The translations under genes and the position numbers were made by a program. DNA of 64,000 bases. Origin: Muribaculaceae bacterium (GTDB lineage Bacteria; Bacteroidota; Bacteroidia; Bacteroidales; Muribaculaceae). Shown here in pieces: positions 15,507 to 63,687 of this stretch (position 1 is its first letter; each line of letters begins with the position of its first letter). A model generated the notes under the pieces. It made no database searches, had not been told where the DNA came from, and saw nothing but the letters and a program-made list of their open reading frames with translations. The stretch lies in the NCBI GenBank assembly GCA_022484565.1, contig JAKVKZ010000004.1, positions 18,021-82,020 on the forward strand, read 5' to 3'.

Positions 15507-18116
15507 ATGGAGCCTAACACCAATAACAACAAAAATGCGTTCGTGCGTCTGTTCACGGACAGGAAATTACTTTTCAGCCTGCTTGCAATCGCTGTTTTCG
15601 CCCTTATTTCATGGGCATATTTCTATCCTGATGATGTACAGAACAACGTGCTGCACGCCCAGGACATCCAAGCTGGCTTGGCCAATGGTCAGGAGGTCGC
15701 CTCATTCCACATGAAGACCGGTAAGACTTACTGGTGGAATAATTCCCTGTTCTGCGGAATGCCATCTTTCCAGATGTCGCCGTCGTACAGCAGCAACGAG
15801 TCGCTCAACACTGTCGGCAAAGTTCTCGGACTTGGTTTCACCTCGCCTGTCAACTTGCTGTTCATCATGATGCTTGGCTTCTACATCCTTATGCTTGCCT
15901 GCAATGTGAAGTGGTATGTGGCTATCCCGGGCGCAATTGCCTATGGATTTTCATCTTACTTCATAATATTGATTGGAGCGGGCCATATTTGGAAATATCT
16001 TACTCTCGCTTACATTCCGCCCACGATTGCGGGCGTCATTTGGTGCTATCGAGGCAAATATCTGCTCGGTGGTGCTGTAGCGGCGCTTTTTGCTGCACTT
16101 CAGATTGTATCCAACCACATTCAGATGTCGTATTATTTCCTATTTGTCATTCTTGCCCTTGTCATCGCTTATCTTGTCAAGGCAATTAAGGACAAGGAAA
16201 TGAAGAAGTGGGGCATCGCCACCGGCACTCTTTTGGTTGCTGCTATCCTTGCTGTGGGGGCAAACATGTCGAACCTCTACAATACCTACGAGTTCAGCAA
16301 AGAGACAATGCGTGGCGGACGTTCTGAACTGCCTGCCGTCGCAACCAGCCAAAATGCCAAGGCAAACGATAAAGCAAACTTGACCAAAAATGGTCTGAAC
16401 CGCGACTACATCACTCAATGGAGCTATGGCATCGGCGAAACCAACTCGCTCATGATTCCTAACGTGTGCGGCGGCTCTTCCGTACGCCTCACGAATGGAG
16501 AAACCAGCATGCTCTCTCTTGCCGAAACGGACAAGGCTAAGGAAATGCTCGATAAAAATGAGATTTCACAGCAGGATTATCAATATCTGCAACAGTTCCC
16601 GCAATATTTCGGCGACCAGCCTATGACTAACGGGCCTGTGTATGTCGGCGCGCTTATCTGCGCCCTGTTCCTGCTCGGCTGCTGCGTAGTGAAAGGTCCT
16701 GTAAAATGGGCTTTGCTGATTGTCACAATTTTGTCAGTTCTGCTCTCGTGGGGGCACAACTTCATGGGACTTACCAACGTATTTATCGATTATTTGCCGT
16801 TCTACAACAAGTTCCGAACGGTTTCAAGCATACTTGTCATAGCAGAGTTCACAATGCCAATGCTGGCAATGCTGGCTTTGCAGAAGATTTTCACTGAAAA
16901 GGATTTCTTCCAGAATCATTCACGCGCACTGTATGCGTCTTTCGGCATCACTGCGGTAATTTGCCTTTTCATCTGGATGTTCCCTGGCGTTTTCAGCCTT
17001 TATTCCCAATCGGAAAATGAGCAGTTCATTCAAAGCGGTGTTGCCCAGCAGGTTCCAACCCTAACCACGGCCATTGAAGCTATCCGCAGGAGCATGATTG
17101 CCTCCGATGCCATCCGCAGCTTTGTCATTATCGCTATCGGTTTCGGCATTCTGCTTGTTTACTTCACTAAGAAGATTAATGCGGTTCTCACCGGCTCGCT
17201 TGTCACCGTCCTTGTGCTGATTGACCTTTACACCATCAATAAGCGCTACCTCAGCAGCAGCTCATTCACTTCCGATAGCGGTATCGCAACTCAGCCTTTC
17301 CAGCCACGTACGGTTGACCAGCAGATTAAGCGCGACACCACAATGAATTATCGTGTGTTTGACGTCCAGCATTTCAGCGACGCTCTGCCTTCCACATTCC
17401 ATAAGGCCGTCGGCGGTTACAGCCCTGCCAAACTCAACCGTTTCCAGGACCTTATAGATTACCAGATTGCTAAGAACAACATGCAGGTAATCAACATGCT
17501 CAACGCTAAATATATCATCACATCCGATTCCACCGTAATGCAGAATCCGGGTGCTCTTGGCAATGCATGGTTCGTGGATTCGTTGACTTTCGTGAATACT
17601 CCGGTTGAGGAAATGCACTTCCTCGATAAATTCAATCCTAAGACTCAGGCTGTGGCCGACGCTAAGTTCAAGTCAGCAATTGGTGGCGCGATACCTGCAA
17701 AGGCTTCCGGCGACACCATCTACGAGGTTACATACGCGCCTGATGAGCTGAATTACCATGCAGTTTCCAAGAATGGCGGTCTGGCAGTATTCTCCGAAAT
17801 CTACTTCCCTTGGGGCTGGCAAGTCAGCATCGATGGCAAGCCTGTGGAAATGGGCCGTGTGAACTATGTTCTCCGCGCTCTCCGCATTCCTGCCGGCAGC
17901 CACAACATTCATTTCCTCTACGACCCGCAATCGGTACACACTACCGAAACCATCGGTTACTGCTCCAACATTCTCATTGCAATTGCTGTTATTGCCGCAA
18001 TTGCGGGAGGAATCCTGCAGGCTGTCCGTCGCAAGCCAGAGGATGAAGCTCCTGCCGAAGTTCCGGCTGAAAAAGAACCGGCTGCTCCAGCAAAGCCTAA
18101 AGCAAAGAAGAAATAA
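15507..18116 (+). CDS. yfhO: YfhO-family polytopic membrane protein (glycosyl-transfer associated)
   Basis: 869 aa with many TM helices. N-terminus ..YFYPDDVQNNVLHAQDIQAGLANGQE.. and ..NNSLFCGMPSFQMS.. are typical of Bacteroidetes YfhO. It has a Pro/Ala/Lys tail. Confidence 0.75.
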   Translation: MEPNTNNNKNAFVRLFTDRKLLFSLLAIAVFALISWAYFYPDDVQNNVLHAQDIQAGLANGQEVASFHMKTGKTYWWNNSLFCGMPSFQMSPSYSSNESLNTVGKVLGLGFTSPVNLLFIMMLGFYILMLACNVKWYVAIPGAIAYGFSSYFIILIGAGHIWKYLTLAYIPPTIAGVIWCYRGKYLLGGAVAALFAALQIVSNHIQMSYYFLFVILALVIAYLVKAIKDKEMKKWGIATGTLLVAAILAVGANMSNLYNTYEFSKETMRGGRSELPAVATSQNAKANDKANLTKNGLNRDYITQWSYGIGETNSLMIPNVCGGSSVRLTNGETSMLSLAETDKAKEMLDKNEISQQDYQYLQQFPQYFGDQPMTNGPVYVGALICALFLLGCCVVKGPVKWALLIVTILSVLLSWGHNFMGLTNVFIDYLPFYNKFRTVSSILVIAEFTMPMLAMLALQKIFTEKDFFQNHSRALYASFGITAVICLFIWMFPGVFSLYSQSENEQFIQSGVAQQVPTLTTAIEAIRRSMIASDAIRSFVIIAIGFGILLVYFTKKINAVLTGSLVTVLVLIDLYTINKRYLSSSSFTSDSGIATQPFQPRTVDQQIKRDTTMNYRVFDVQHFSDALPSTFHKAVGGYSPAKLNRFQDLIDYQIAKNNMQVINMLNAKYIITSDSTVMQNPGALGNAWFVDSLTFVNTPVEEMHFLDKFNPKTQAVADAKFKSAIGGAIPAKASGDTIYEVTYAPDELNYHAVSKNGGLAVFSEIYFPWGWQVSIDGKPVEMGRVNYVLRALRIPAGSHNIHFLYDPQSVHTTETIGYCSNILIAIAVIAAIAGGILQAVRRKPEDEAPAEVPAEKEPAAPAKPKAKKK

Positions 18117-54888: not shown

Positions 54889-54989
54889 TACATTTGTCCA
54901 TTTCTGGTGTTTAACTTTTACGAGAATCTAATCTGAAAATTAAGCTTGAATATCAAAGAACCTTTATCATCCCTCTCTATTTTTCCGAA

Positions 54990-55699
54990 TTCATGTCGAG
55001 TGCTGCTTGCTGTCTCAAAACGAGTGTTTCATGAAAGGAATCCATCAATGCGACAATCGCATAGTAAGCATTTTCCAGCCGCATGTCCGCCCGATAGTCA
55101 GAGTGAAAGCCAAAGCGAAGGTCGAATTCGGCGGGAAAATCGGGGCAAGCATCGTAGACGGGTATACTTTCATTGACCATCACAGCTGGGAGGCCTATAA
55201 TGAATGCGACGATCTGATGACCCACCTGAGGTGCTATAAGAGGCGATTCGGCTGTCTCCCTGAGAAATTCGAGGGAGACACGATTTACATGAACAGGACC
55301 AATCGCAGGATTTTGAGGTTCCTGAGAATCGAAATCGGCGGAAAGCCCTTGGGTCGTCCCTCCAAAGAGCAATTGACAGAAGAGTATCGGACGGCAATGG
55401 CCAAAAACATCGGGGAAAGAAACGAGATTGAGGCGACTTTTGGCACAGGCAAGAGAGTTTATAAGGCAAACGACATCAGGGCGAAATTGCCTGACACGGG
55501 AAAATCATGGACTGCCGCCTGTTATTTTGCGAAAAAATGTGATGAAGTTCTTAAGAGGGCTTATTCATGCCTTGTTTGAAATGTCCGATTCCTTCCTGAA
55601 GCTCTTCTCCAACCTGCTAATCTTTGAAACTCGAAGTCTGCCGATGGACAAATATCGGATTCTGACAACTAACGGATATCGATAATTCAGCAAACCCTA
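54990..55699 (+). mobile_element. 5'-truncated, frameshifted remnant of an IS5/IS1182-type insertion sequence (right end intact)
   Basis: ORF 55007-55579 reads ..SIFQPHVRPIVRVKAKAKVEFGGKIGASIVDGYTFIDHHSWEAYNE.., a DDE transposase core. 55412-55699 is ~95% identical to 63232-63518, with a 1-nt A-run indel near 55537 that breaks the frame. The terminal attcagcaaacccta is at 55685-55699. The left boundary is not determinable and no left inverted repeat is present. Confidence 0.7.
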
Positions 55700-55774
55700 C
55701 ATAGTAATAAAAGTAAAGGATATTCTCTTATAAACAAAAGTCCCAATAGCCAGAATAGACTATTGGGAGAAATA

Positions 55775-56473
55775 TTAAAAAATACATTTATCAATTATGT
55801 CTTGGCTGATGCCTTCTTTCTTGAACCTTTCAGCAATAATAGATTTTAGGTCTTTACTTTCATTATACTGGTAAATCATGTGCCCCAACATCTCTATTGC
55901 ATCTTCTATCCTTTTCTTCCCACTCTCTTTTTTAATATCTATTTCTGAAAAAAGAGAGCGATCCCTATGCAGGTTGAGATAATAGATACCACCTATAATC
56001 AATGCGGAAATCGCTGCAATATCGATGCCAGTTCCCTTAAATTTCTTTTCATAAGTTTTTACCAAAGGTAACGTATGCATCTCACGTAACATTGCCGTTC
56101 GTACTGTGGTTTCATTACCTTCTGCAATTTCCCAGCGTAAAAGCTCCAACATGACAGATCCTTCTGATAGGGCTTTTTGTACTTCCTTAAAGATACTAAT
56201 ATATCCATTGACATCGTCAGTTGGAAATTGGCTACCCGAAAGAATATCCTTAAACCAATAATCATACTTCTTGACAAATTCGTCAAGGAATCCGCCAAGA
56301 TTAGTGTACCGGTTATAAAATACAGGAGGCTCTATCCTCGCTTTTTTAATCAAATCGGTAACAAGCATGGCAGAGAACCCTTTCTTTTTAATAAGGCTCT
56401 CTGCGGATTTTATAATATCAGCCTCTAAATCCACCTTGGTTCTTCTATATCTCTTCGGCTTGTTTTCTTCCAT
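55775..56473 (-). CDS. TetR/AcrR-family transcriptional regulator
   Basis: The N-terminal HTH region is IIKSAESLIKKKGFSAMLVTDLIKKARIEPPVFYNRYTN. 232 aa. Confidence 0.75.
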   Translation of the reverse strand: MEENKPKRYRRTKVDLEADIIKSAESLIKKKGFSAMLVTDLIKKARIEPPVFYNRYTNLGGFLDEFVKKYDYWFKDILSGSQFPTDDVNGYISIFKEVQKALSEGSVMLELLRWEIAEGNETTVRTAMLREMHTLPLVKTYEKKFKGTGIDIAAISALIIGGIYYLNLHRDRSLFSEIDIKKESGKKRIEDAIEMLGHMIYQYNESKDLKSIIAERFKKEGISQDIIDKCIF

Positions 56474-56478
56474 AATTA

Positions 56479-57476
56479 TTAAAAAGAAATTGATTTCCGT
56501 ATAGTTACCAGTGCATTTACCAAATCATCCAACTGACTAAGCTCATGGGTTGCTAAGACACTAACCCGCAACCGAGCCTCTTTGGTTCTTACAGCAGGAT
56601 AAGTAATTCCGCTTACAAATATACTCATTTTTTGCAATTCACGAGAAATCTCATATACTTTTTTATTATCTCTTACCCTTATTGGGAATATAGCGGATTC
56701 AGAAGGCCCTATATCAAATCCTTCTTTTGTAAGTCTTCTGCGCAGATAGGTTATATTCTCTCATAGCTTCTTTCTTATTTCTGGACGAGTATTGATTAAC
56801 TCCAATGCTTTAAGGGCTGAGTCTGCTACCTGAGGTGTCATCGCAGCAGAAAATACATTACTGTCAGCATAGTATCTGAGATATTGTATGAGCTTGGTCG
56901 AAGCTGCGACAAAACCACCCACACAGCCAAAAGACTTGCTGAAAGTTCCTGTGATGATATCAACCTTTCCTAAACAATCGTAATATTCCGCCGTTCCTTT
57001 TCCAGTATCTCCCATAACGCCAATGCCGTGAGCATCATCCATCATAAGTAGGCAATTATGCTTTTTACATACCCTTATATAATCAGGAAGAAGGGATAAA
57101 TCGCCGTTTTGTGAATAAACACCGTCTATAATGACTATACGTGTTTGATACTGACCTTTATCACGCTCCAGTATCACATCAAGGTACTCTATATCATTAT
57201 GACCTATATGCTTTGTATTTGTTCCTATTAACCCACTCGTAGCACTGGTATGGATATATGAATCTATATAGGCCATATCATTTTTACCTAATATTGCACG
57301 TAAGAAACCATCATCTCCATTTTGGCTCCAACACCTGTCTTTGACATAACTCAATATCTCTTACAGACGAAGGTCTTCATCTGGTCAATATACGCTTGGA
57401 AATTTTGGCTTCTTTCAATGATATTCTCTTTATGAGATAGCTCAAAGTCTTTTAAATCAATAATTGTTTTGTTCAT
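56479..57476 (-). pseudogene. Decayed alpha-oxoamine synthase (AONS / serine-palmitoyltransferase family) gene
   Basis: PLP-enzyme motifs DDAHGIGVMGDTGKGT and TGTFSKSFGCVGGF occur in ORF 56761-57354. The same frame continues after an in-frame TGA (56761-56763) as ENITYLRRRL...YPAVRTKEARLRVSVLATH. The stop replaces the conserved Trp of the family's LWEN motif. The N-terminal 41 codons (from ATG 57476) are in another frame and ~70-90 aa of the family core are missing. Confidence 0.7.
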
Positions 57477-57665: not shown

Positions 57666-60281
57666 ATGAAGTTTACAACATTATATTTACTGATATTTCT
57701 CCTCTGTTCTTATTCTGAGGCACAAGGACAAACTAAGACTACTCTAATAACTGGAGTGGTTAAAACGGAATTGGGAGAATTTGTGCCATATACCACAATT
57801 TTTATCTCCAAAGTTAAGCAAAAAAATTGCGTTCTTGCTTCTGGGCAATCTGATTCAAAAGGCGAATTTCACATTGCACTATCTGTACCAAACGATAGTA
57901 TTGCACTGCACATTACACATATTAGCTTTGAGCCTGTAACAATTTTGTGCAAGAATATATCACAAAAAATTGACGTGATTGTTCAAGAACGTGCTAATCA
58001 ATTGAAAGATGTTGTAGTAAAGTTCCCAAAAGTGTATGCAAATGGAGACACTGTCAATTATCGTGTTTCTGCATTCCAACAGGCAAATGATTTATCAATT
58101 GGTCAAGTTCTTCAACGGCTACCTGGCATAACAGTGTCTGACATCGGTCAAATCTCTTATAAAGGAGTGCCTATCAAGAACTTCTACATCGAGGGGTTGG
58201 ATTTAATGAAAGGTAGATATGGAATTGCAACCAACAATATAGACCCTAATAGCATCAGTACAGTACAAGTGCTGGAAAATAACCAAGATATTAAGGCGCT
58301 TAAAGACTTAAAACCTGAAGAACGGGCTTCCATCAACTTAAAACTCAAAAGTGGGGTAAAAGAAATTTTCAATCTTATTGCTACGTTAGGTGTAGGATCT
58401 GATAAAAAGGCGCTATGGGATAATGAGTTAATCGCCACTTATTTTAAGCGCAACAGTCAATTGTTGGCTACCTATAAGGGAAATAATTCAGGAAATGATT
58501 TGGAAATAGAATTGAGATCATTTGACGAAGGTGGCACAAGGTATAAGACAACAGCTTTAACAGAAATGACAATGCCTAGTACTCCTGGCATCGGAAAACG
58601 TTATTATTATTTTAATCAATCACATACAGCTACTTTCAATCATGTAAGTAGGATCGGTTCAAATGGCGAATTGGGATTGAATATTGCTTTTTTGAAAGAT
58701 AAAGATGAGAGAACTCTTCAGGCAACCACAACCACCTATTTAGCCAATGGGAAACGAAATATTATAAATGAAAGCATTGATGGATTACTATACAAACGTG
58801 TTGGCTATGGTACCATAACCTATATGCTCAACAGTAATCATTATTATGTAAAAGAACAACTAAAATCAGAGTTGACTTCGACAAATGGTCATAGTGATGT
58901 TCAAATAGGAAATAAAGTTACTCAATTTAGTAAAATGAATAGTTATGCGGTTCAAAACACGCTTCATTTTACCTATCGTACAAGTAATAATCACGGAATA
59001 GATTTTTTCTCAAAAGTGAATTTTGAAAAAAGACCACATCAGTTGTCCGTTTCATCAAATTTCTTTCCAAAGATATTATCAGATGATGACATGCTCCAGC
59101 AAGTGAACCGTTCTAATATTTCAACCGAAAACAAATTAGATTTATTATCAGCTTTAGTTTTAGGGCGTTTGACAGTAGACCCATTCGCCCTATTTAATCT
59201 TTCTGTTGACAAATTAAGCAGCTCACTGCAACAATATCAGAACGACATTTCATTGAAAACGACAAATGTTGGTATGGGGCTTACTGCTAATTATAAATTA
59301 GGGAAAACCTATTTTGATTTTTTACTGTCTGGAATATACCGTTTATATAGTTTAAGAGACCAGCAGATTGGTCTGTCATCTCTAAAGCAAAAAATTGTGA
59401 CAGAGCCAAGTCTTTCTATCAAGTATGCAATCAATGGTTTTCATGAACTAAAGTTCGGATTTGGTATGGGTTATGCCAATCCTTCTATTGAAACACTTTA
59501 TGGAAATTATATTTTGACCAATTATAGACAACTCTCAATTTATGAAAGTAACGAACTATTTTATGCTCAAATTAATAGGACAAACCTTACATATAACTAT
59601 AAGAACATTGTTTCTATGTGGTTTGCAGGGGTTGATTTGACATGGGTTAACTATCATCCAGATGTATTATATGGCACAACTTATGATGGTGTATCAGAAA
59701 AAATAACAAGTAGATCAACAGACGAAGTCTCAAACTCGTATTCGGCCATTTTGCGAAGCAGTAAGGGGTTCGACTGGAAAAAAACAAAAATAAGTGTTGA
59801 TGCGAAATACACGCACTTTGATAGTCCATTGCTTCAGCAAGAACAGATCTTGAGATATTCTGGAAATTCATACTCCACGAATCTTTCTCTTAACAGTAGT
59901 CCGTTTAACTGGATGTCAGTAGCTTATTCAAGTGGACTTTACGTTTCTAAGTCAAAAATGCAATTTGGAGGGTCTACACCCACCATTAAAACCCTAAGAA
60001 ATAATTTTACTATGAATTTATATTTACCTAAAGGTATAGATCTCAGAATGAAAGCCGTTCACTTTTACAACAATCTGAACAATAAGGATAAATCTTTCTT
60101 TCTTGGCGATATAGATATAAATTACAGTATTAAACGTTGGTATTTTTCATTGGCTTTCGATAACATCTTCAATCGCAAAATGTATGTAAACTCAACATCG
60201 TCTGATTTGCGTGAAAATATGATTTTTTACCACATTCGTCCACGCACATTCATATTTCGTGTAAGATATAGAATACTATAA
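57666..60281 (+). CDS. Outer-membrane beta-barrel protein with a carboxypeptidase-regulatory-like domain and a TonB-receptor plug
   Basis: Signal peptide. The N-terminus is LITGVVKTELGEFVPYTTIFIS, the plug is GQVLQRLPGITVSDIGQISYKGVPIKNFYIEGLDLM...VQVLEN, and a long Y/N/S-rich beta-barrel ends ..IFRVRYRIL. Confidence 0.75.
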   Translation: MKFTTLYLLIFLLCSYSEAQGQTKTTLITGVVKTELGEFVPYTTIFISKVKQKNCVLASGQSDSKGEFHIALSVPNDSIALHITHISFEPVTILCKNISQKIDVIVQERANQLKDVVVKFPKVYANGDTVNYRVSAFQQANDLSIGQVLQRLPGITVSDIGQISYKGVPIKNFYIEGLDLMKGRYGIATNNIDPNSISTVQVLENNQDIKALKDLKPEERASINLKLKSGVKEIFNLIATLGVGSDKKALWDNELIATYFKRNSQLLATYKGNNSGNDLEIELRSFDEGGTRYKTTALTEMTMPSTPGIGKRYYYFNQSHTATFNHVSRIGSNGELGLNIAFLKDKDERTLQATTTTYLANGKRNIINESIDGLLYKRVGYGTITYMLNSNHYYVKEQLKSELTSTNGHSDVQIGNKVTQFSKMNSYAVQNTLHFTYRTSNNHGIDFFSKVNFEKRPHQLSVSSNFFPKILSDDDMLQQVNRSNISTENKLDLLSALVLGRLTVDPFALFNLSVDKLSSSLQQYQNDISLKTTNVGMGLTANYKLGKTYFDFLLSGIYRLYSLRDQQIGLSSLKQKIVTEPSLSIKYAINGFHELKFGFGMGYANPSIETLYGNYILTNYRQLSIYESNELFYAQINRTNLTYNYKNIVSMWFAGVDLTWVNYHPDVLYGTTYDGVSEKITSRSTDEVSNSYSAILRSSKGFDWKKTKISVDAKYTHFDSPLLQQEQILRYSGNSYSTNLSLNSSPFNWMSVAYSSGLYVSKSKMQFGGSTPTIKTLRNNFTMNLYLPKGIDLRMKAVHFYNNLNNKDKSFFLGDIDINYSIKRWYFSLAFDNIFNRKMYVNSTSSDLRENMIFYHIRPRTFIFRVRYRIL

Positions 60282-60337
60282 AAATACACTTCGGTGTACA
60301 TAGTTCATATATTATTAACATTTTAAATTCTTAAACA

Positions 60338-60586
60338 ATGGATGCAACAAAATTCCAATCTTTAGCACAAAGTGCTATGAATGAGAGGGAGATGAGATCC
60401 CTTTCTGGAGGCAATGTCTGTGGATGCGCAAGCAATTCCACTATGGACAATGGTTCTGCAAACCACGCCGGAAACCTCAACTCGAAGGGAGCTACTATGT
60501 CAGAAATGACATACTTCATGGACGAGGTTGTTGTGACTGCTTCGCATGCAGTTGCAACAGAGACTAATTTTGAGATTTGTGAATAA
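60338..60586 (+). CDS. Small secreted-peptide precursor with a double-glycine-type leader
   Basis: The 82-aa ORF begins MDATKFQSLAQSAMNEREMRSLSGG, followed by a 57-aa core (NVCGCASNST...NFEICE). The leader fits the L-x4-E-[LM]-x2-[IL]-x-GG pattern. A C39-peptidase gene fragment lies 2 kb downstream. Confidence 0.55.
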   Translation: MDATKFQSLAQSAMNEREMRSLSGGNVCGCASNSTMDNGSANHAGNLNSKGATMSEMTYFMDEVVVTASHAVATETNFEICE

Positions 60587-60618
60587 TCAACAAATTAATA
60601 CCCTTAACTAAAAACAAA

Positions 60619-61455
60619 ATGAAAAAAGTATTATTATTAATAATTTGCCTTATATCCAAGTTTGTCTATGCACAGTTCCCACCTGCACCACAAATATTGG
60701 ATAAGAAACATTGTGTAGACACTGCATATATAGAACTCCTATATTCATTTAAATTTAAGAACCTTGCAGGACAAAAAGATTTTACAGAGGACATAAGAAA
60801 AATACAGGTTGGAAATCATATTGTAAAGGACTTTAGTCACATTGTATTCCATTATGACTCACTTGCAACAGAGCGTACTAAAAAGGGTCTACAAACACAA
60901 AACATTCCCACACAAACATATCCTTGTGAATTATACAGTGATGTGGAAAATCATTTGCGAGAAGAGAAATATCGCCTGATGTTAAATGCAGGTGTACTTT
61001 GCTATGATTCCCATTGGATAACACCCGAATGGCAGTTTATACCTGATGATACAATACGTTTATCTGGCTATCTGTGTAATAAAGCACAAATTAATTATGC
61101 AGGAAGAAACTACACAGCATGGTATACATTGGATATCCCTATTTCCTATGGGCCATTCAAATTTTGGGGTCTACCGGGGTTAATTATTAAAATTGAAGAG
61201 GAGAGTGGCTTGTTCATATGGGAGCTATATAAGATGAATAAGGTTCATTCACCCATTTATAAATACAAATACGACAGGGAGCAAACTTGTACAGAAAGCA
61301 CAGCAAAACGCACAATTGATAGGATGATGTCTTCACCTATGTCATTTTTGCAGTCCGTCGGAACAAGAATGATGGTAAGGCGCAGTGATGGGAGTTTTGG
61401 TGCGCCATCACAGAATAACCAACTGGAAGTGTATCAACCCATAGAATTAAAATAA
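60619..61455 (+). CDS. GLPGLI-family protein
   Basis: Signal peptide MKKVLLLIICLISKFVYAQ. The eponymous motif is FWGLPGLIIKIEE. 278 aa. Confidence 0.8.
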   Translation: MKKVLLLIICLISKFVYAQFPPAPQILDKKHCVDTAYIELLYSFKFKNLAGQKDFTEDIRKIQVGNHIVKDFSHIVFHYDSLATERTKKGLQTQNIPTQTYPCELYSDVENHLREEKYRLMLNAGVLCYDSHWITPEWQFIPDDTIRLSGYLCNKAQINYAGRNYTAWYTLDIPISYGPFKFWGLPGLIIKIEEESGLFIWELYKMNKVHSPIYKYKYDREQTCTESTAKRTIDRMMSSPMSFLQSVGTRMMVRRSDGSFGAPSQNNQLEVYQPIELK

Positions 61456-61538
61456 AATGATAGAATCAAGGACTGCCCATTACGATACATTTGTCCTCCC
61501 ATTTCTTCTTATGAAATTTCATCTAATAATACTCAAAT

Positions 61539-62597
61539 ATGTGGTTAAACTATAAAAAGATACGATTATACAGTTTGGTATTTATCGTTATGCTGTTTTG
61601 TGCAAACACAAGAGAGATAGCTGCAACAGTTCCTCAAACAATTACATGGTCATTACTCAAAGAGGATTCTCTTCTTCATATAAAAAACATTCAAGAGATA
61701 AAACTCTTACATGATGAATTGTATATAACCTATGAATTTCCTGGAGGATATGGCGATCAGTTATTAAAAAGTTATAGTATAAATTGGAATACTCACACGA
61801 TGCACTTTACAAAAGAGTATTACAAGCGTAAAAATGGTACGCATGTGTTTAGTGTTCCAATAACATTTTGGGATGAATATGGAAATATATTTGTCACAGA
61901 ACGTAGCAATCCATATATCTACGAGTTAAGAAAAGACACCCTGCATAGAAACGGTGAAGCCATAATCTCTTCAATGTCAGAGTGCCCATATGAGTTAGTT
62001 CTTGAAGTCAAATACCCTTTCATTTTATCTAAAGGTAAATATTTCTTTGTAGGACGACAAGAAAAGAATGGGCATCAAGCTATTTTTAGTTCAACCACCC
62101 ATGATAATAAGCAGAAGATAGAAGAACTTTCTAAAATTATATATGATAAAAGATACCCATCATGGCTTGTAAATCATGGAATGTTTATCTATTGCCCATC
62201 AAAACAAAAGGGCGCATTTGCATATCAGCTATTCCCTGCTGTAGAATTCTTTAATTTCAGCGATGGCACTACCAAACTATTCAAGAAAGGATTGAACACT
62301 TTTAATTCTAAGACAATTAATGAAGGCGATATATGGGAGTCAAATCCTATTCATTTTAAGTATATTACTTCAAATAAAAAATATGTATATTGTCTTTATT
62401 GGGGGCTTACTACACAACGTGCGTTGCAAAAATACAAGCAGCATACATTTCGAGCAGAAATTGTGATTCTAAATTGGGATGGGGAAATATATAAGACCTT
62501 AAAAACCACACGTAAGATAACTGCTATGGCTGTTAGTGAGGACGGAAAATATCTCATAGGATTTGATGGTAAGAACTTCCTAATTGCAACAATTTAG
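61539..62597 (+). CDS. Hypothetical protein, possibly a TolB-like/6-bladed beta-propeller family member
   Basis: 352 aa with an N-terminal hydrophobic anchor. It has repeated beta-rich segments, and its ending ..AMAVSEDGKYLIGFDGKNFLIATI resembles Bacteroidales 6-bladed propeller proteins. The assignment is weak. Confidence 0.35.
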   Translation: MWLNYKKIRLYSLVFIVMLFCANTREIAATVPQTITWSLLKEDSLLHIKNIQEIKLLHDELYITYEFPGGYGDQLLKSYSINWNTHTMHFTKEYYKRKNGTHVFSVPITFWDEYGNIFVTERSNPYIYELRKDTLHRNGEAIISSMSECPYELVLEVKYPFILSKGKYFFVGRQEKNGHQAIFSSTTHDNKQKIEELSKIIYDKRYPSWLVNHGMFIYCPSKQKGAFAYQLFPAVEFFNFSDGTTKLFKKGLNTFNSKTINEGDIWESNPIHFKYITSNKKYVYCLYWGLTTQRALQKYKQHTFRAEIVILNWDGEIYKTLKTTRKITAMAVSEDGKYLIGFDGKNFLIATI

Positions 62598-62600
62598 ATA

Positions 62601-62707
62601 ATGCTTAGATTTCCAAATTGTACACAATATGATAGTATGGACTGTGGTCCATCATGCCTACGTTTGATATCATTATCCTACGGAAGAGATATTTCTTTAG
62701 TATATAT
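62601..62707 (+). pseudogene. N-terminal stub of a C39-peptidase-domain bacteriocin ABC exporter, truncated by IS insertion
   Basis: Below the ORF track's size cutoff, so absent from it. ATG 62601 reads MLRFPNCTQYDSMDCGPSCLRLISLSYGRDISLVYI, the canonical Q..DCG..CL....YG C39 active-site N-terminus. The frame runs into the IS inverted repeat at 62707 and stops. Confidence 0.7.
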
Positions 62708-63518
62708 AGGGTTTGCTGAATAATATCATTTATTTGATTAATAGTAAATTAATTGCATAAAAAGTTGCCAGATTCGATAAAAAGCAGTACCTTTATGTGT
62801 TAATTTGAAGTAAATGAAATAAAGTTCACAGCATAAACAGATAGTACTTGACCCGTGCTGGACAAGCCTCGAGGGTTTGCCCAAAGAAAACTGGTGGGCG
62901 AAACTCGGTGATTCCCTTCCATGGGACAAGATTGAGCGGATTTACAATAATCGCCTCAACAACAGGCATTGTGGAGCCGGCAACAAGTCGGCACGCATCA
63001 TCATAGGAGCACTGTTGATAAAGCACAAGATGAATCAGTCCGACCGCGAAACGATTCAGGCCATCAGTGAGAATCCTTATATGCAGTACATGCTCGGCCT
63101 TGAGGCGTTTACCGCACGCCCTGTTTTTGATCCGTCTTTGTTCGTGACCGTCCGCAAACGCCTTGGCGAGGACACGTTCAACGACATGAGCGAGTCCCTG
63201 CTAAAACTGGAGGTCAGGCTGTCGGAAGAAGGGGGAAAGAAACGAGATTGAGGCGACTTTTGGCACAGGCAAGAGAGCTTATAAGGCAAACGACATCAGG
63301 GCGAAATTGCCTGACACGGGAAAATCATGGACTGCAGCCTGTTATTTTGCGAAAAATGTGATGAAGTTCTTACGAGGGCTTCTTCATGCCTTGTTTGAAA
63401 TGTCCGATTCCTACTTGAAACGCTTCTCCAGCCTGCTAATCTTTGAAACTCGAAGTCTGCCGATGGACAAATATCGGATTCTGACAACTAACGGATATCG
63501 ATAATTCAGCAAACCCTA
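62707..63518 (+). mobile_element. Internally deleted (non-autonomous) copy of the same IS5/IS1182-type element, with both ends intact
   Basis: Perfect 15-bp terminal inverted repeats: tagggtttgctgaat (62707-62721) and attcagcaaacccta (63504-63518). The N-terminal transposase fragment ..ENWWAKLGDSLPWDKIERIYN...SENPYMQYMLGLEAFTARPVFDPSLF.. is a DUF772-type domain. It is joined at ~63231 directly to the last ~290 bp of the element. Confidence 0.8.
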
Positions 63519-63687
63519 AATGAGTTTTTTCCGTTTTTCATGTACCCCACTTTCTATGCTGCATTAACTTAGCGTGAAAAACTGGAACATGAAAGCCCAA
63601 ACTACTATCACAAATCACCATGCAGCCGAGCCTCAAAAATGTTTGGCAGAATTCCTTTTGATGGTAATAAATATCCTCATCAAAATC

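Follow-up and report, generated by a model that had tools for sequence, protein, structure and literature searches.

Does the short open reading frame (ORF) at positions 60338-60586 of a Muribaculaceae contig encode a bacteriocin of a new kind, or the remains of a system that is already known? The frame lies within a stretch of 64,000 nucleotides (hereafter the window; positions 18,021 to 82,020 of contig JAKVKZ010000004.1, GenBank assembly GCA_022484565.1), and an earlier reading of the letters alone (the original prediction) had proposed an unusual bacteriocin behind a double-glycine leader, with no modifying enzyme in the locus. Here, we found that the supposed bacteriocin without modifying enzymes is a recognisable precursor of the family TIGR04149, i.e. 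a peptide made on the ribosome and modified after its translation (RiPP) whose maturation would involve a radical S-adenosylmethionine (rSAM) enzyme, so that the result for the window is mainly corrective. We consider it highly probable that 60338-60586 is a TIGR04149 rSAM-peptide precursor gene in a decayed biosynthetic cluster and, most likely, a relic.

The ORF lies on the + strand and comprises 82 codons for 82 amino acids. Its first 25 residues (60338-60412, + strand; MDATKFQSLAQSAMNEREMRSLSGG) form a leader whose GG end is the predicted cleavage site of a C39 peptidase, with hydrophobic residues at -4 (Leu), -7 (Met) and -12 (Met) that can be read directly from the sequence (...AMNEREMRSLSGG). 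The core of 57 residues, encoded together with the stop codon at 60413-60586 on the same strand (NVCGCASNSTMDNGSANHAGNLNSKGATMSEMTYFMDEVVVTASHAVATETNFEICE), carries CGC at core positions 3-5, a further Cys as its penultimate residue and the conserved stretch DNGSANHAGN. The original prediction had described both parts accurately, the leader as C39-type with GG, Leu at -4 and Met at -7, and the core as 57 residues with CGC at 3-5 and a Cys within the last three; the GG site and the cysteines, which it had singled out for checking, are both kept in homologues.

Is this frame a gene at all? A chance opening in an AT-rich spacer would be short, as this ORF is, and the frame lacks a Shine-Dalgarno sequence and is overlapped by two other short ORFs. 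However, in pairwise comparisons with diverged relatives, each of which covers 20-28 synonymous differences, the peptide shows a ratio of nonsynonymous to synonymous substitution rates (dN/dS) of 0.05-0.13, which is as low as or lower than the 0.12-0.26 of the flanking genes and therefore identifies 60338-60586 as a coding frame. Given also a match that exceeds the curated TIGR04149 cut-off and hundreds of homologues with the same leader and core architecture, we regard a chance frame as already refuted.

The family assignment rests on a match to NCBIfam TIGR04149 of 37.7 bits (cut-off 25, E 1.4e-9) over residues 4-37, and the same match is returned by a scan of the whole genome. TIGR04149 is the NCBIfam 'GG-Bacteroidales' rSAM-modified RiPP precursor, and NCBI names relatives of the peptide 'TIGR04149 family rSAM-modified RiPP'; the earlier impression that it is of no recognisable kind does not hold. 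A collection of 5.8 billion proteins contained 26 homologue clusters of the peptide, and a profile search of 1.84 billion representatives gave 345 homologous representatives at 50% identity (E <= 0.001). Across the family, the leader residues E/R/E and L/S/G/G are invariant or nearly so. For the core, an empirical motif of the 345 representatives gives CxCxC at the start, then (S)S..[DN]-N-G-x-A-N-[HY]-x-G, then a conserved Ser; the core holds invariant Cys, His, Asp and Asn, and the C-terminal Cys is missing from most members. The window core has kept the DNGSANHAGN part intact, but reads CGC instead of CGCxC. The CGC noted by the original prediction is consequently no native motif but a damaged CxCxC, as the third Cys (C32) is present in 15 of the 16 intact members aligned, the window being the exception. 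A codon alignment with the closely related locus L013 places the lesion at an in-frame deletion of 6 nt between 60423 and 60424, inside TGTGG[TTGTGC]ATGC, by which CGCAC became CGC. As judged from these comparisons, the peptide is a damaged, newly seen member of the known TIGR04149 family and not a new kind of bacteriocin, and the conserved core signature of the family, GG followed by CxCxC ... DNGxANHxG, offers a handle for its study.

What does an intact cluster look like? We read the context on contigs with close and distant homologues of the peptide, several of them metagenomic. The intact set consists of genes for a TonB-dependent-transporter-like protein (hereafter transporter-like), the peptide, a GLPGLI-family protein, the rSAM enzyme (413-416 aa across clusters), a pseudo-rSAM protein (404-407 aa), a beta-propeller protein, an exporter of the C39 ATP-binding cassette (C39-ABC) type (714-733 aa) and a short protein (148-158 aa). 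The whole set, including the short protein after the exporter, is found in L013, L014, L022 and L025, and the cluster occurs in the named genomes of Prevotella amnii DSM 23384, Hallella multisaccharivorax DSM 17128, Segatella copri HDD05 and Prevotella sp. khp7. The peptide of L013 shares 90% identity with that of the window; the rSAM protein of this locus is a TIGR04148 rSAM/SPASM maturase (442 bits, cut-off 300) and its exporter is a 725-aa peptidase-containing ABC transporter (PCAT). The TIGR04148 maturase occupies the orthologous position in L013, L014, L022, L025, L027, L028, L030 and L031, and the rSAM pair sits between the GLPGLI and propeller genes in the orthologous loci.

The window has lost most of the biosynthetic and export part of this set. 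Two blocks are aligned by blastn, window 57666-61464 with L013 2232-6073 and window 61467-62708 with L013 8449-9689, from which it follows that exactly 2375 bp are missing from the window. The junction, read base by base, shows that all but the first ~8 nt of the rSAM gene and all but the last 26 codons of the pseudo-rSAM gene are missing. At the scar (61456-61545, + strand), the ~8 nt of the rSAM start are joined at ~61465 to these 26 codons, and tblastn finds residues 380-405 of the pseudo-rSAM protein at 61468-61545. Further downstream, only the first 36 codons of the C39-ABC exporter (PCAT) remain (62601-62708, + strand), within a 40-codon ORF (62601-62723) that has a C39-peptidase-like start and a weak match to Pfam Peptidase_C39. 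This stump is 89% identical to residues 1-36 of the L013 PCAT, and the homology stops at 62708, where an element derived from the IS5 family of insertion sequences (IS) truncates the gene (62709-63521, + strand; NCBIfam transpos_IS5_1 and Pfam DUF772 on 62877-63248). With its maturase pair deleted, its exporter cut short by the IS element and the third Cys lost from the core, the window's own system can neither mature nor export the peptide, which is most likely a relic that has not yet been erased. All six metagenome contigs of the same species share the decayed layout, five of them identical over the locus and one differing at 9 positions.

The remark of the original prediction that no modifying enzyme is visible was correct in so far as the window contains none. 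The absence is secondary, however: a clean deletion removed the pair where orthologues hold it, so that the lack of modifying enzymes results from decay and is no property of the system. Likewise, adjacency of the peptide gene to a TIGR04148 gene is true by descent and false in the present state, in which only the scar is left, and the C39-type leader finds its counterpart in the exporter gene of the cluster, of which the window has only the 36-codon stump. In the assembly, which is 82.5% complete, we found no rSAM match at the TIGR04148 level (the best generic rSAM protein reaches 42 bits against 300) and neither a second C39 domain nor a remainder of the PCAT, the other ABC transporters being without C39.

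These observations bear directly on the bacteriocin originally proposed, taken here to be an unmodified, class II-like double-glycine peptide of a new kind that would be exported by a C39 transporter and held by a disulfide bond. The GG leader is genuine, the window is free of modifying enzymes, and the two N-terminal cysteines and the C-terminal one could in principle pair. Against this stand the rSAM pair, held at the window's deletion site by all orthologous clusters but the decayed L032, the reduction of the exporter to a stump that is the sole C39 match in the assembly, and the absence of the C-terminal Cys from most of the family. We therefore consider an unmodified bacteriocin very improbable.

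How would the intact system work? A ribosomally made leader-core precursor would be cross-linked in its core by the TIGR04148 rSAM/SPASM maturase and its pseudo-rSAM partner, as we infer from the homology of the maturase to PapB, CcpM, RumMC and SCIFF enzymes (model matches with E 1e-50 to 3e-19, all far under the cut-offs), since our literature search gave no biochemistry for TIGR04148 or TIGR04149 members. The likely products of this step would be thioether bridges from the three cysteines of CxCxC to the invariant D-N-G-x-A-N-H. The C39-ABC exporter would then cleave after GG and move the product out of the cytoplasm, and the transporter-like barrel, the GLPGLI protein and the propeller lipoprotein would handle it in the periplasm or at the outer membrane, most plausibly in immunity or uptake.

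Has the constraint on the peptide gene of the window been relaxed? Compared with the closest relative L071 (dS ~0.02), the peptide gene has 4 nonsynonymous substitutions to 1 synonymous one, plus the deletion, and the L071 peptide has changed GG to GC, i.e. has lost the second Gly. At the same distance, omega is 0.32 for the transporter-like gene and 0.25 for the GLPGLI gene. This is what a relaxed peptide gene beside constrained neighbours would look like.

Several points weigh against a relic of a TIGR04148-dependent system. The relaxation signal comprises 5 substitutions only and is not significant, and the peptide ORF is still intact in the window. Because the assembly is 82.5% complete, an exporter or a maturase may lie in its unassembled part. 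The 405-aa pseudo-rSAM protein of L013 is related to TIGR04150 (131 bits, E 6e-38) but stays under the cut-off of 250. Finally, no determined structure, activity or chemical characterisation of any TIGR04148 or TIGR04149 member was found in the literature searched, although the peptide family occurs widely among Bacteroidales from the gut, mouth and vagina. The core signature, and the envelope genes and C-terminal tail described below, can be put to the test in cultured strains with intact clusters (Prevotella amnii DSM 23384, Segatella copri HDD05 and Prevotella lacticifex).

Might the peptide still be used without maturation, for example by acting on the envelope module as its ligand, its decoy or its regulator, or might enzymes from neighbouring cells or from unassembled DNA accept it as a substrate? 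An intact ORF that is identical in five of six independent metagenome copies, purifying selection on the neighbouring genes and a genome of only 82.5% completeness would all be compatible with such a use. We nevertheless regard it as quite improbable: with no exporter, and with a leader of the GG type instead of a Sec signal, the peptide has no exit from the cytoplasm; L032 keeps the three envelope genes but has destroyed its peptide gene; and the window peptide has lost an otherwise invariant Cys, its nearest relative the GG site.

Is such decay confined to the window? We found five separate kinds of damage, in Hallella multisaccharivorax, L020/L021, L018/L019, L032 and the window itself. In the isolate Hallella multisaccharivorax DSM 17128 (L026:10001-13500), a 1-nt insertion shifts the frame of the peptide gene between ANHA and GN and the rSAM gene is interrupted by an insertion of ~1 kb; otherwise the cluster is intact. 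L020/L021 carry a 1-nt deletion in the peptide gene of an otherwise intact cluster. In L018 (5870-6530) and L019, the peptide gene and the first ~107 rSAM codons are inverted, which splits the rSAM gene; this inversion belongs to the P0019 lineage and is seen in European Nucleotide Archive and Logan assemblies (7 contigs). The inverted repeat at its flanks in L018 is only 15 nt long and 87% matched, and the inversion could be fixed or could be an invertible on/off switch. Losses were also read in L032, a metagenome-assembled genome (MAG) of a gut Prevotella that is 98-99% identical to the intact L014: over L032:10100-12460 the peptide gene is short of 210 bp at its 3' side, 2422 bp with the rSAM pair are missing and the exporter is lost beyond ~residue 146, and the transporter-like, GLPGLI and propeller genes are kept.

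According to the original prediction, disruption of the frame in close relatives with intact flanking genes would have spoken against a translated ORF. Disruptions of this kind do occur in some lineages (the frameshift in Hallella multisaccharivorax, the 1-nt deletion in L020/L021 and the 3' loss in L032), but they do not make the ORF a non-gene; their recurrence in several lineages points instead to repeated loss of production. The window and L032 sit on separate branches, each with an intact sister, whose proteins share only ~58% identity, so that both reached the same end state independently. Moreover, because L032 has kept the trio of envelope genes while its peptide gene was destroyed, the trio needs no peptide.

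The first gene of the trio encodes a TonB-dependent-transporter-like outer-membrane protein of 871 aa (57666-60281, + strand) with a signal peptide, a CarboxypepD_reg-like beta-sandwich, a divergent plug and a beta-barrel. It is present in every orthologous cluster, with dN/dS of 0.13-0.32. The second encodes a 278-aa member of the GLPGLI family that carries a signal peptide (60619-61455, + strand; TIGR01200 with 131 bits against a cut-off of 50, Pfam Porph_ging) and lies directly 3' of the peptide gene in most clusters (dN/dS 0.12-0.25). The third encodes a beta-propeller protein of 352 aa with a lipoprotein-type signal (...MLFC) (61539-62597, + strand; Pfam TolB_like/PF15869 on orthologues); it is kept in the orthologous clusters, but not in the L031 stretch examined, and has dN/dS of 0.12-0.26. 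The transporter-like, peptide, GLPGLI and propeller genes and the exporter stump form one co-directional row on the + strand.

What does selection maintain in a strain that no longer makes the peptide? Probably the three envelope genes are useful without its production and are what selection keeps. Their retention in two independent lineages after the loss of biosynthesis and export suggests an immunity or uptake module and provides a handle on the function of the family; most plausibly, we infer, the trio either protects from the peptide of neighbours (orphan immunity) or takes it up (a receptor-only 'cheater'). Orphan immunity loci and siderophore 'cheater' loci are known cases in which biosynthesis and export were lost and envelope genes kept, and the two lineages described here resemble them in having lost production while keeping envelope genes under purifying selection. 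The layout of multi-peptide clusters lends some support to immunity. In L028, L033 and L047, each peptide gene is followed by a GLPGLI gene of its own, L053 has two GLPGLI genes after one peptide gene, and in the distant cluster L076 the partner of the peptide is a DUF5128 six-bladed propeller instead of a GLPGLI protein; such peptide-partner cassettes resemble toxin-immunity pairs.

Alternatively, the product of the family might be a shared good, a metal- or nutrient-binding peptide that is exported by the PCAT and re-imported by the transporter-like protein, with the window strain as a non-producer that keeps the receptor. Methanobactin with its transporter MbnT is an analogue of such a shared good, and the siderophore cheater one of the non-producer. 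This explanation would be suited by the transporter-like gene, which is conserved as an integral component of the cluster, by the retention of the transporter-like, GLPGLI and propeller genes in two lineages without biosynthesis and export, and by the invariant Cys, His, Asp and Asn of the core. The several peptide genes each with its own GLPGLI gene (L028, L033, L047), however, look more like toxin-immunity pairs, cysteines consumed in thioethers cannot bind metal, and neither metal-regulation signals nor other direct evidence was found. We therefore judge a shared good unlikely.

A further feature of the peptide is its C-terminal tail. In the subfamily, the core ends in, or holds near its end, [FYW]-L-D-E-V-V-V-T-(P/A), and the window peptide has the corresponding C-terminal strand MDEVVVTA at 60518-60541 (+ strand; LDEVVVTA/P in the family), which resembles a TonB box. 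Indeed, the TonB-box consensus of the genome's own transporters is L-[DNKQ]-E-V-V-V-[TIV]-[AG], and a search of the 2324 ORFs of the genome for DEVVV gives 9 occurrences, of which 8 are the TonB box of a Plug-bearing protein and the ninth lies in the peptide. Scored with a position weight matrix built from the TonB boxes of the genome, the consensus of the family, LDEVVVTAS, reaches 20.9 bits and falls within the range of real boxes, while the window's MDEVVVTAS reaches 12.8 bits, a score matched by about ten non-transporter sites, and the Segatella copri variant 7.2 bits. Of 137 family representatives, 24 have the pattern x-[DE]-[VI]-[VIT]-[VIC] within their last 14 residues, whereas shuffled sequences would give 0.13, a contrast that is inflated by relatedness; from this excess, the tail appears to be a recurrent module.

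We speculate that the tail ([FYW]-L-[DP]-E-V-V-V-T-P/A) could act as a functional mimic of a TonB box on a small cross-linked RiPP that docks at a TonB-dependent transporter. The C-terminal strand would then thread into the periplasm and engage TonB, and the product would either be pulled in like a colicin or block TonB; the transporter-like, GLPGLI and propeller proteins of the cluster would form the matching immunity or uptake module, retained by non-producers such as the window strain. To our knowledge, no RiPP or microcin has its own TonB box. Since the likeness was noticed post hoc, it is a lead and not a test, and we consider the mimic unlikely. In a sample of 401 genomes of the order, transporter-like and GLPGLI genes also accompany peptides without the tail; among three distant tail-bearing peptides, two are accompanied by transporter-like and GLPGLI genes and one by DUF5128 propeller cassettes.

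How does the system compare with those already described? An in silico listing of 'sactipeptide-like' clusters of gut Bacteroides includes those with TIGR04148/04149/04150 (Walsh et al. 2015, PMC4573289). PMC10352776 discusses the three families in Bacteroidales and states that no function has been assigned to pseudo-rSAM proteins. The locus agrees with this GG-Bacteroidales system in that the leader and the start of the core of the window peptide pass TIGR04149 and the orthologous loci hold TIGR04148, a pseudo-rSAM protein and a C39-ABC exporter; it differs in what is gone from the window copy, namely both maturase genes, the exporter and one Cys. The subfamily, moreover, adds the transporter-like, GLPGLI and propeller-lipoprotein genes and the LDEVVVT(A/P) tail, none of which is mentioned in PMC4573289 or PMC10352776, and a full HlyD partner is replaced by the 148-158-aa protein, which is akin to the N-terminal part of a HlyD-family protein.

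With ranthipeptides and sactipeptides (PapB/freyrasin, CteB/thermocellin, SCIFF, RumMC), the family shares an rSAM/SPASM enzyme as the orthologous maturase and a core rich in Cys, Asp, Asn and Thr; the matches to their models are far under the cut-offs, however. The pseudo-rSAM partner and the envelope accessory genes are features of this family and not of ranthipeptide or sactipeptide systems. Bacteroidetocins, which are made by the same order, Bacteroidales (PMC10352776), and colicin V/microcin V likewise have a double-glycine leader, a C39-ABC exporter and Gram-negative hosts, but are unmodified, whereas an rSAM pair is encoded alongside the peptides of this family. Small double-glycine peptides such as microcin V rely on the TonB box of a transporter and have none themselves (PMC12511343). 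According to PMC5692591 and PMC7064778, group B colicins and pyocins S2/S5 possess a TonB box of their own, which is used after binding to a TonB-dependent transporter. The tail of the present family would resemble these in being a short strand of TonB-box consensus on an antibacterial product that is secreted. Colicins and pyocins of this type, however, are proteins of tens of kDa whose box lies at the N-terminus, whereas here the putative box is C-terminal on a peptide of ~45-57 residues.

Structure prediction adds some detail on the envelope proteins. The transporter-like protein matches Pfam Plug and CarboxypepD_reg weakly, under the cut-offs, and carries a TonB-box-like LKDVVVKF of its own. 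Its AlphaFold2 (AF2) model (predicted local distance difference test, pLDDT, 65) is confident for the N-terminal beta-sandwich and the barrel and poor for the plug, and all top Foldseek matches in the Protein Data Bank (PDB) are TonB-dependent transporters (FhuA, YncD, Fiu and BtuB), with low TM-scores of 0.3-0.46. The AF2 model of the GLPGLI protein is poor (pLDDT 55). Sequence searches of the PDB with the transporter-like, GLPGLI and propeller proteins returned no usable match, and for the GLPGLI and propeller proteins no relative of solved structure could be recognised by sequence.

At the position of the short protein, after the exporter, a distant cluster encodes a protein of the HlyD family, and the short protein is similar to its N-terminus. 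In Segatella copri (L030:16818-19511) and a related MAG (L028:10128-12821), it is the transporter-like gene that lies directly 3' of the exporter, and the N-terminus of its product (MKHNKILNGHCKELNNML...) resembles the start of the short protein and not an ordinary signal peptide.

Between the transporter-like and peptide genes, 4 nt past the upstream stop codon, lies a hairpin with a 5-bp stem and a UUCG loop (60285-60298, + strand), present just as the original prediction had described it. The hairpin is conserved in position across 8 loci, among which one base pair has changed in a compensatory way (A-U to G-C). The 76-nt stretch around it folds no better than shuffles (z = +0.5), and no U-tract follows it. 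With no excess stability, no U-tract and a single compensatory pair, we rejected the hairpin as a terminator or structured leader; by eye, no hairpin is common to the regions upstream of the peptide genes of distant clusters.

The locus is set apart from its surroundings in composition. Over 57666-62720, its GC content is 34.5%, against 44.6% for the genome, and it lies 225 nt from the contig end. The right-hand IS5-derived element, which truncates the exporter, is internally deleted and retains only ~124 transposase codons. A second IS5-family-derived fragment lies to the left (54946-55702); its 3' end (55412-55702) is repeated at the right-hand element, with 96% identity between 63232-63521 and 55412-55702, the 3' ends of the two fragments. 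The ends of IS elements thus bracket the low-GC island. Upstream of the cluster, at 55775-57476, we observed a TetR-family gene and a decayed, fragmented gene for an aminotransferase similar to BioF and serine palmitoyltransferase. An aminotransferase gene is recorded upstream in relatives as well (L020:5115-7047; L072:21-533); that of L020 is also split, in a different way, and adjoins a 232-aa gene that matches the window's TetR gene in size. The TetR and aminotransferase genes may be part of the island.

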